Assembly: GCF_003334335.1 (NCBI RefSeq)
Contig: NZ_QOWQ01000092.1
Reading direction: 5' to 3' (one strand)
From: Escherichia coli
GTDB lineage: Bacteria > Pseudomonadota > Gammaproteobacteria > Enterobacterales > Enterobacteriaceae
DNA length: 2,232 nt
This document shows positions 1 through 2,232 of this stretch, piece by piece (the stretch's first letter is position 1; each line of letters opens with the position of its first letter). The notes beneath the pieces were generated by a model. That model was not told where the DNA came from. It searched no databases and worked only from the letters and a program-made list of their open reading frames with translations. The position numbers were made by a program, and so were the translations under genes.

Positions 1-2232
1 GGAGGCTCACACCTTTGACTCTGTGAAATTTATTCTGACCACCGCTCTCGCCGGTGGTCTGCTGGCTGTTCCCCTGCAGATCAAAAACATTCAGCAGAAC
101 GGGATCACACCAGAAGATATCAGCAAGGAAATTAACGGGTATTACTGCTGTTTTTATACTGCCTTTTTCCTTATGGCGTGTTCTGCATGCGCACCATTGA
201 TCGCGTTACAGTACGATATTTCACCGTCACTGATGTGGTGGGGCGGGTTGTTGTACTGGCTGGCTGCATTAGTGACGCTGCTATGGGCGGCCAGCCAAAT
301 CCAGGCGCTGAAAAAACTGACCTGTGCCATCAGCCAGACACTGGAAGAACAACCGGTGCTCAACAGTAAATCGTGGCTGACCAGTTTGCAAAACGATTAC
401 AGCCTTCCTGACTCACTGACGGAGCGCATCTGGCTGACGCTCATTTCTCAACGGATTTCCCGGGGAGAGCTGAGGGAATTTGAACTGGCAGACGGAAACT
501 GGTTACTGAACAATGCCTGGTATGAAAGAAACATGGCAGGGTTTAACGAACAGTTGAAAGAGAACCTGTCATTCACACCTGATGAACTGAAAACGCTCTT
601 CCGGAACCGCCTGAATTTATCACCGGAAGCGAATGACGATTTTCTCGATCGTTGCCTGGACGGCGGTGACTGGTATCCCTTTTCAGAAGGTCGCCGTTTT
701 GTATCATTCCATCACGTGGATGAGCTTCGTATCTGTGCCTCCTGCGGGCTGACAGAAGTACATCATGCCCCGGAAAATCATAAGCCGGATCCGGAATGGT
801 ACTGCTCCTCTCTTTGTCGCGAAACAGAAACACTGTGTCAGGAAATTTATGAACGCCCTTACAACAGCTTTATTTCCGATGCAACGGCGAATGGTCTGAT
901 TCTCATGAAACTGCCGGAAACCTGGAGTACAAATGAGAAAATGTTTGCTTCCGGAGGGCAGGGACATGGGTTTGCCGCTGAACGGGGAAACCATATTGTC
1001 GACAGAGTCCGTCTGAAAAACGCACGGATCCTCGGTGATAATAATGCCAGAAATGGAGCAGACAGACTGGTCAGCGGAACAGAAATCCAGACGAAATATT
1101 GTTCAACTGCAGCCCGTAGCGTCGGTGCGGCATTCGACGGACAAAACGGACAGTATCGTTACATGGGAAATAATGGCCCCATGCAACTGGAAGTCCCCCG
1201 TGATCAGTATGCCGGCGCTGTTGAAACCATGAGGAATAAGATCCGCGAAGGTAAAGTACCCGGTGTAACCGATCCCGCAGAAGCATCCCGGCTGATTCGT
1301 CGGGGACATCTGACTTATACTCAGGCCCGTAATATCACCCGGTTCGGGACCATCGAATCGGTCACTTATGATATTGCCGAGGGTTCGGTTGTCAGTCTGG
1401 CGGCCGGAGGGATCAGTTTTGCCCTGACGGCATCGGTCTTCTGGCTCAGCACCGGCGATCGCGATGCTGCCCTGCAGACAGCTGCTGTCCAGGCAGGAAA
1501 AACCTTCACCCGCACACTGGCTGTCTACGTCACAACCCAGCAACTCCACCGGCTCAGTGTTGTTCAGGGTATGCTGAAGCACATTGATTTTTCGACTGCC
1601 AGCCCGACTGTCCGACTGGCTCTTCAGAAGGGGACCGGTGCAGGAAATATCAGTGCCCTGAACAAAGTGATGAAGGGTACGCTGGTGACATCTCTGGCAC
1701 TGGTAGCTGTCACAACCGGCCCTGACATGATCAAAATGTTGCGGGGACGGATCTCCGGTACGCAGTTCATCAGGAATCTTGCCGTGGCATCTTCCGGTGT
1801 GGCAGGTGGTGCTGTCGGGTCAGTGGCGGGCGGAATACTGTTCAGTCCACTGGGACCATTTGGTGCACTGACAGGGCGTGTGGTTGGCGGTGTTCTGGGG
1901 GGAATGATTGCCTCCGCTGTATCAGGAAAAATTGCCGGAGCGCTGGTTGAAGAAGATCGCGTCAAAATTCTGGCAATGATTCAGGAGCAGGTGACATGGC
2001 TTGCCGGCAGTTTCCTGCTGACCGGACATGAGATTGAAAATCTGAACGAGAATCTGGCCCGTGTTATCGATCAGAATGCTCTGGAGATCATTTTCGCCGC
2101 CGGTATACAACAACGGGCCGCGACCAATATGTTAATCAAACCACTGGTGGTCAGTATCATCAGGCAACGCCCCGTCATGGAATATGATGCATCCCATCTC
2201 GGCAATATGGTTAACCGACTGGAAGAAGCATT
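1..2232 (+). CDS. Large uncharacterized membrane protein, internal fragment (partial at 3' end, probably also at 5' end); codon phase begins at nt 2
   Basis: Manual translation of the frame starting at nt 2 gives 743 consecutive sense codons (nt 2-2230) with no stop; the other two + frames hit stops within the first 26 nt (TGA at 16-18 and 24-26). Leu is mostly CTG and the translation has protein-like features (hydrophobic helix-length segments, Cys4 motif, GxxxG repeats). Translation begins EAHTFDSVKFILTTALAGGLLAVPLQI... and ends ...HLGNMVNRLEEA. Product identity is unassigned. Confidence 0.85.
29..292 (+). other. N-terminal cluster of three predicted transmembrane helices (aa 10-27, 46-69, 77-97 of the window translation)
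   Basis: Three uncharged hydrophobic stretches of 18-24 residues: FILTTALAGGLLAVPLQI, GYYCCFYTAFFLMACSACAPLIAL, LMWWGGLLYWLAALVTLLWAA, separated by short polar loops; the third is followed by the positive residues KK (aa 104-105). Judged by eye, no predictor run. Confidence 0.6.
734..817 (+). other. Putative zinc-ribbon-like Cys4 motif (C245-x2-C248 ... C268-x3-C272) with flanking His residues
   Basis: Translation reads HHVDELRICASCGLTEVHHAPENHKPDPEWYCSSLCRETETLC: two Cys pairs 19 residues apart, His at aa 237, 238, 254, 255, 260, and a fifth Cys at aa 279. The spacing matches a small zinc-ribbon knuckle pair; metal binding is inferred, not shown. Confidence 0.45.
1388..1447 (+). other. Internal hydrophobic, Gly/Ala-rich segment (aa 463-482), possible transmembrane or membrane-inserting helix
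   Basis: VVSLAAGGISFALTASVFWL is uncharged and helix-length, followed by the polar STGDRD. A shorter hydrophobic stretch LVTSLALVAVTTG follows at aa 561-573 (nt 1682-1720). Confidence 0.4.
1778..1948 (+). other. Glycine-zipper (tandem GxxxG) hydrophobic region, aa 593-649; candidate membrane hairpin or oligomerisation module
   Basis: LAVASSGVAGGAVGSVAGGILFSPLGPFGALTGRVVGGVLGGMIASAVSGKIAGALV contains G602-x3-G606-x3-G610, G621-x3-G625-x3-G629-x3-G633, G630-x3-G634 and G642-x3-G646. About 55 residues carry only two charged side chains (R626, K643), with a Pro-Leu-Gly-Pro turn-like centre at aa 616-619. Confidence 0.55.

Follow-up and report, generated by a model that had tools for sequence, protein, structure and literature searches.

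Why does a long open reading frame (ORF) of Escherichia coli carry arginine codons that are rare in its host, and do they tell where the gene came from? The question arises from a stretch of 2,232 nucleotides (nt) on contig NZ_QOWQ01000092.1 (assembly GCF_003334335.1), hereafter the window, in which an initial annotation, made from the letters alone, had taken AGA/AGG, ATA and CTA codons in an otherwise CTG-rich frame as a sign of low expression or of an accessory-island origin. We conclude with high confidence that the window belongs to full-length yeeR, a known accessory-island gene located beside the gene of the Ag43 adhesin, and that its odd codons are real, common to the island neighbours and ordinary for such DNA. 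That the gene lies in accessory islands is already published (PMC4807369, PMC6480617); the codon finding itself matters little.

The window is one open frame (frame 2, + strand, bases 2-2230, 743 codons, no stops) and falls wholly within one coding sequence (CDS), which extends beyond the window by 263 nt on the upstream side and by 22 nt on the downstream side. It differs by a single nucleotide from positions 15001-17232 of locus L001 of strain OkiPb01677, inside a CDS of 2,517 nt (14738-17254) whose product of 838 amino acids (aa), WP_001315618.1, is annotated as 'hypothetical protein'. The whole window is matched at 99-100% identity in many E. coli genomes; in K-12 strains the match is limited to window positions 1-1258 (99.9% identity), where the feature is annotated yeeR. 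By sequence identity, the window is thus the interior of full-length E. coli yeeR in its intact 838-aa form. K-12 yeeR (b2001, UniProt P76361), located in the cryptic prophage CP4-44, is the same gene on the same island backbone with agn43 (flu) likewise upstream, but it is a 510-aa truncation. An Rfam search of the window yielded no RNA family.

All 11 rare codons stand in the single open frame exactly where the initial annotation had placed them (Table 1), and its count of at least eight AGA/AGG codons agrees with the eight that we find (four AGA and four AGG). The host reference consisted of the 229 annotated CDS with 150 aa or more (80,275 codons) in six stretches of E. coli K-12 MG1655, each 50 kb long, and the weights of the codon adaptation index (CAI) were taken from 30 ribosomal-protein, EF-Tu, EF-G and RpoA genes. 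A background built from mechanically called long ORFs was discarded because antisense ORFs, e.g. opposite pta and pal, contaminated the set. AGA and AGG together account for 8 of the 43 arginine codons (18.6%), compared with 3.3% in the pooled host genes, where about 1.4 would be expected (binomial P = 7e-5). The supposed rarity pattern holds for arginine only: ATA (2 of 44 Ile codons, 2.2 expected) and CTA (1 of 82 Leu codons, 2.7 expected) are at or below the host average and not enriched. Nor is the CTG richness distinctive, since CTG makes up 52 of the 82 leucine codons (63%) versus 54% in the pooled host, and 63 of the 229 K-12 genes equal or exceed this share.

Stronger deviations than those of the cited codons had been missed. 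GGA occurs at 21 of 64 glycine codons (5.6 expected, P = 7e-8), CGG at 12 of 43 arginine codons (3.2 expected, P = 5e-5), ACA at 15 of 49 threonine codons (5.4 expected, P = 2e-4) and CCC at 7 of 24 proline codons (2.3 expected, P = 0.006); the chi-square of the window against pooled host usage is 195 on 41 degrees of freedom. The simplest alternative, that an ordinary gene shows this pattern by chance, agrees with ATA and CTA being at expectation, but it is refuted by the P values for AGA/AGG, GGA and CGG and by the chi-square against the 229 K-12 CDS, and we assign it practically no probability.

Measures that reduce the window to a single number behave differently. The G+C content at third codon positions (GC3) is 0.537, where the host genes have a median of 0.563 and 73 of the 229 lie lower, and the overall G+C content (GC) is 0.520 against 0.528, both host-typical; the CAI of 0.357, against a host median of 0.431, is equalled or undercut by 30 of the 229 genes, i.e. 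the 13th percentile. Because GC, GC3 and CAI are host-like, the classic single-number tests for foreign DNA fail to flag the window. The comparison of CAI and GC3 with host genes, to which the initial annotation had pointed as a check, therefore returned a host-like GC3 and a low-normal CAI and did not set the window apart. Its caution that the codon pattern is weak evidence alone was well placed; GC3 and CAI give no separation, and two of the three cited codon classes are uninformative. Even the AGA/AGG fraction is equalled or exceeded by 10 of the 229 K-12 genes, although by only 1 of the 68 genes of at least 400 codons. Taken together, the CAI within the host range, the host-typical GC and GC3 and the ten ordinary genes with as high an AGA/AGG fraction are what may be offered for a second alternative, namely that the gene is native and poorly expressed, its rare codons reflecting only weak translational selection, with no part played by horizontal origin.

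The comparison with neighbouring genes bears directly on this alternative. The 12 neighbouring island genes, pooled (2,888 codons), use AGA or AGG (AGR) for 11.4% of arginine, CGG for 20%, GGA for 19%, CCC for 35%, CTG for 75% and CTA for 0.4% of the respective residues, and the values for AGR, CGG, GGA, CCC and CTG, but not CTA, are significantly above those of K-12. We computed a per-codon log-likelihood ratio between the neighbours' synonymous codon table and the K-12 table. The window scores +0.044 per codon, whereas the 229 K-12 genes have a mean of -0.089 (standard deviation 0.032) and a maximum of +0.017, so that none of them reaches the value of the window. With each island neighbour left out of the table in turn, 10 of the 12 score positive. 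The window is separable from host genes through GGA, CGG, CCC, GCC, CTG and ACA as much as through AGA/AGG, and the signature, rich in AGA/AGG, CGG, GGA, CCC, ACA, GCC and CTG with CTA nearly absent, is common to the whole island module and not specific to yeeR. YeeR homologs in Serratia, other Enterobacteriaceae, Methylomonas and Pseudomonas also use AGA/AGG for 12-26% of their arginines, which is consistent with a mobile gene that has weak expression in whatever host it occupies.

The distribution of the gene points in the same direction. A megablast search of the window against 5,426 complete E. coli genomes gave matches in 2,582 of them, in line with the initial annotation's suggestion to look for variable presence across strains; in 1,801 genomes a single place accounts for 80% or more of the window. 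Up to five places are found per genome, nearly all chromosomal, and the sites include the serX tRNA island, CP4-44 and the pheV region beside the kps or gsp genes. The explanation by a poorly expressed native gene meets two difficulties here: the gene is absent from about half of the complete genomes and is multicopy at several sites, and its codon profile agrees with that of the island neighbours and sets it apart from every one of the 229 K-12 genes, the poorly expressed ones included. We regard it as very improbable. The low-expression or accessory-island reading, on the other hand, gains from the variable presence, the several sites, the mobile module and the multi-codon likelihood test, more so than from the codons cited at first.

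The gene order of the module is GTPase, agn43, yeeR, irmA, DUF905, DUF932, antirestriction, radC, DUF987, yeeU, cbtA, DUF5983, DUF957 and DUF4942. In loci L001, L013 and L014, agn43 lies directly upstream and irmA directly downstream of yeeR on the same strand, and the backbone (GTPase, DUF932, antirestriction, RadC, the YeeU/CbtA toxin-antitoxin pair and DUF4942) is kept in all three. The module abuts a tRNA-Ser gene and ghrA in L001, adjoins the kps capsule genes in the pheV-region island of strain PAR, and adjoins yghD/gsp in O104:H4. The agn43-yeeR-irmA clusters in islands of uropathogenic and enteroaggregative E. coli (PAI-CFT073-serX, PAI-CFT073-pheV and module 5 of AGI-3) have identical gene order and neighbours, likewise occupy tRNA-associated islands and are duplicated within genomes; structurally there is no difference (PMC4807369, PMC6480617). 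It has been reported that agn43-yeeR-irmA is a single transcript repressed by OxyR, with experimental support for both the co-transcription and the OxyR/Dam phase variation, and that it is located in serX, pheV and selC pathogenicity islands, YeeR being called 'uncharacterized' (PMC4807369). Pathogenic strains have also been described as carrying duplicates of the cluster, which is truncated in K-12 and which H-NS/Hha represses (PMC6480617). Neither paper assigns a function to YeeR or looks at codon usage.

With this background, the codon signature could be rationalised as follows. As the island module transfers horizontally and duplicates within genomes, its codon signature would most likely persist. 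Since the module, according to the literature, is normally kept silent through OxyR/Dam phase variation and H-NS/Hha repression, translational selection towards host-preferred codons is expected to be weak. We infer that weak expression and mobility together cause the signature. Several points weigh against attributing the codons to the island. That low expression has to do with these codons is itself something that we infer, a donor lineage was not identified, and the island codon table is drawn from 12 neighbouring genes of one strain only. Moreover, about 4% of ordinary K-12 genes, lptC, nadA and lrhA among them, match or top the AGA/AGG fraction of the window, and GC, GC3 and the global codon-bias distance are host-typical, with a CAI no lower than the 13th percentile. 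Reading rare codons in this simple way can flag island DNA, but within limits: only the multi-codon comparison with neighbouring genes separated yeeR, whereas two of the three cited codon classes, GC3 and CAI did not.

A third alternative concerns the individual codons. The AGA/AGG codons might be functional, slowing or gating the translation of YeeR and of the downstream irmA depending on how much of the rare tRNA-Arg(UCU) is available; this would be similar to what has been proposed for certain regulators of fimbriae and islands under rare-codon control. Three alleles, one of them 2.6% divergent, agree at all 11 rare codons, and a stretch of 21 codons in the most conserved domain contains three AGA. 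Furthermore, the first 54 codons of the CDS (L001 14738-14900, upstream of the window) contain ATA at positions 4, 36 and 54 and AGA at position 23. However, the clustering of AGA/AGG is not significant (permutation P = 0.14 for three AGA in 21 codons), and the retention of the 11 codons in the three alleles is expected by descent, because the synonymous divergence (dS) is at most 0.07. Three AGA/AGG codons are located where 28-34 of 36 homologs have lysine, suggesting simple AAR-to-AGR substitutions, and the bias, which the neighbouring genes share, is not specific to yeeR. Codon 350, for instance, probably arose from AAA via a single A-to-G change, as the homologs suggest. In the full CDS, 3 of the 9 AGA/AGG codons stand at mostly-lysine columns versus 5 of the 39 CGN codons, which is not a significant excess (Fisher P = 0.16). 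We consider translational gating by these codons slightly less probable even than the native-gene explanation, and retain the island origin of the signature. As a separate observation, the 5' end of yeeR (its first 54 codons) is denser in rare codons than the part within the window.

Table 1. Features of the window (codon numbers are those of the window frame; aa numbers those of the 838-aa protein)
Feature	Position	Strand	Remarks
Interior of yeeR-family CDS	2..2230	+	window codons 1-743 = protein codons 89-831 of 838
N-terminal hydrophobic helical (membrane) region, C-terminal part, aa 89-205	2..352	+	hydropathy, long AlphaFold2-model helices, low conservation
Variable helix/hairpin region like tandem winged-helix domains, aa 205-330	350..727	+	AlphaFold2 secondary structure
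Four-Cys zinc-ribbon-like motif CxxCG...WYCSxxCxxTExxC	734..838	+	C333, C336, C356, C360 plus C367, invariant in 37 homologs
Most conserved soluble core, aa 400-535	935..1342	+	alpha-beta-beta-beta-alpha-beta topology
C-terminal helical/hydrophobic region, Pfam YeeR_C by precomputed annotation	1355..2230	+	glycine-zipper stretch at 1775-1948
Last base common to window and K-12 yeeR	1258	+	K-12 cut at codon 507 of 838; deletion reaches yeeS (PMC4807369)
CTA, Leu codon 94	281..283	+	CTA below host average
AGG, Arg codon 158	473..475	+	
AGA, Arg codon 176	527..529	+	
AGA, Arg codon 335	1004..1006	+	full-length R423
AGA, Arg codon 350	1049..1051	+	full-length R438; Lys in 34 of 36 homologs
AGA, Arg codon 355	1064..1066	+	full-length R443, family-invariant
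AGG, Arg codon 411	1232..1234	+	
AGG, Arg codon 591	1772..1774	+	Lys in 28 of 36 homologs
ATA, Ile codon 612	1835..1837	+	ATA overall not enriched
ATA, Ile codon 702	2105..2107	+	ATA overall not enriched
AGG, Arg codon 721	2162..2164	+	Lys in 31 of 36 homologs

The gene is found in both intact and decayed forms, and truncation is frequent. The K-12 deletion takes away codons 508-838, then irmA, DUF905, DUF932 and the antirestriction gene, and reaches into the start of yeeS; the K-12 frame stops 12 nt past the end of homology (L002 16258-16270); the annotated 510-aa K-12 protein is a deletion product without the entire C-terminal membrane region. In strain DFS.1 (L019 8997-10319), and in others where only positions 1125-2232 of the window are matched, yeeR is a pseudogene that lacks the N-terminal half and an IS66-family element interrupts irmA; another genome carries an IS600 insertion in yeeR. 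Between the intact alleles, the ratio of nonsynonymous to synonymous rates (dN/dS) is 0.18, with 37 synonymous and 21 nonsynonymous differences relative to the O104:H4 allele, and by this measure the intact alleles are under purifying selection.

Matches on plasmid records fall mostly on megabase records mislabelled as plasmids. A 99.6%-identical copy on the Klebsiella pneumoniae 'plasmid' ps01 (NZ_CP094480.1, L020) was not taken as evidence of transfer, as the record holds E. coli core genes. That record is typed as a conjugative IncF plasmid, yet carries purE, ppiB and the ecp operon, and in it the autotransporter upstream of yeeR bears the annotation Cah; the record could be chimeric, an F-prime or misassembled. 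A search of phage genomes gave one distant match only, so that nothing points to yeeR as a gene for phage structure or lysis. The variable part of the serX island (L001 1-9987) contains a gene with a reverse-transcriptase domain and the anti-phage gene hhe, together with remnants of an HNH endonuclease and of a type I restriction-modification subunit.

The yeeR gene merits more attention than its codon pattern. It is present in about half of the complete E. coli genomes, shares its transcript with the genes of a phase-variable adhesin and of an immune-mimic protein, and is conserved from Proteobacteria to Firmicutes, yet it has no assigned function. The alignment of homologs and the AlphaFold models (mean pLDDT confidence score 77-78) suggest a five-part architecture composed of a hydrophobic N-terminal region, a winged-helix-like region, a zinc ribbon, a core and a C-terminal region with a glycine zipper. 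For the winged-helix-like region, Foldseek returned ESCRT-II and other winged-helix structures at a probability of 0.97-0.99, although the E-value of about 0.1 makes these matches weak. The zinc-ribbon-like motif sits just upstream of the conserved core, in which H410, E415, N418, D422, D442, R443, Q451, K453, Y454, E485, D489 and Q490 are invariant. The C-terminal region gives weak matches to C19orf12-like, tape-measure and PDC-M09B proteins, with a pLDDT below 50 for aa 685-736; a marginal PHROGs tape-measure match falls on the glycine-rich stretch and was judged to be compositional.

PF27347 (YeeR_C) appears in the precomputed annotation of the 99%-identical cluster representative P0001 and of nearly all homologs. 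Our own Pfam-A scan, with a model set that does not include PF27347, gave nothing significant, nor did the whole protein or a profile of its core domain when searched against Pfam-A, NCBIfam and PDB sequences. Foldseek found no PDB match to the whole model at E of 0.001 or below, and from AFDB50 the core retrieved none but YeeR-family proteins. Homologs of about 830 aa with 30-69% identity occur across Gamma- and Betaproteobacteria, and the profile of the conserved core collects 1,027 clusters at 50% identity with many different architectures. The AFDB matches extend to Firmicutes, Actinobacteria, Brachyspira and Helicobacter, and include fusions to Sel1 repeats and to DnaK-like and TerD domains.

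The modelled core weakly resembles nucleases of the restriction-endonuclease type, the PD-(D/E)xK group to which HamA of Hachiman, the CdiA-CT toxin, FokI and NgoMIV belong. In a comparison with the PD-(D/E)xK motif, E415, D442 and K453 are invariant, while the middle residue is an invariant glutamine, Gln451 (Q451-x-K453). In addition, the C-terminal half of YeeR gives weak hidden Markov model matches to the PADLOC candidate defence protein PDC-M09B (E = 4.8e-6), and the distant family member P0162 matches most of that profile (E = 6e-6). PDC-M09 is a two-gene candidate to whose B component the scores are marginal; in the literature we found no paper validating PDC-M09 and no experimental report of anti-phage defence by YeeR. 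Distant full-length homologs in Pseudomonas and Methylomonas (L010, L011) are solitary genes and have RES/Xre or HicAB toxin-antitoxin pairs, a TIR-domain gene and IS66 as neighbours, a context that resembles a defence island. In other Enterobacteriaceae, a 68%-identical homolog in a CP4-like island (L015 10001-22523) adjoins dndBCDE-like and PIN-domain genes and is not adjacent to agn43 or irmA. A nuclease-like, possibly defensive role of YeeR is a lead, not a finding. Carried further, YeeR might be no passive passenger but the founding E. coli member of a very widespread, uncharacterised membrane-anchored family, in which a cytoplasmic zinc ribbon and a restriction-endonuclease-like core would act on incoming or foreign DNA as a single-gene defence or exclusion function, switched ON and OFF in E. 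coli with Ag43; we propose this only tentatively and think it rather unlikely. Lastly, an antisense ORF of 159 aa (window 1103-1582, - strand) overlaps the conserved core, and is probably a by-product of the codon pattern on the sense strand.

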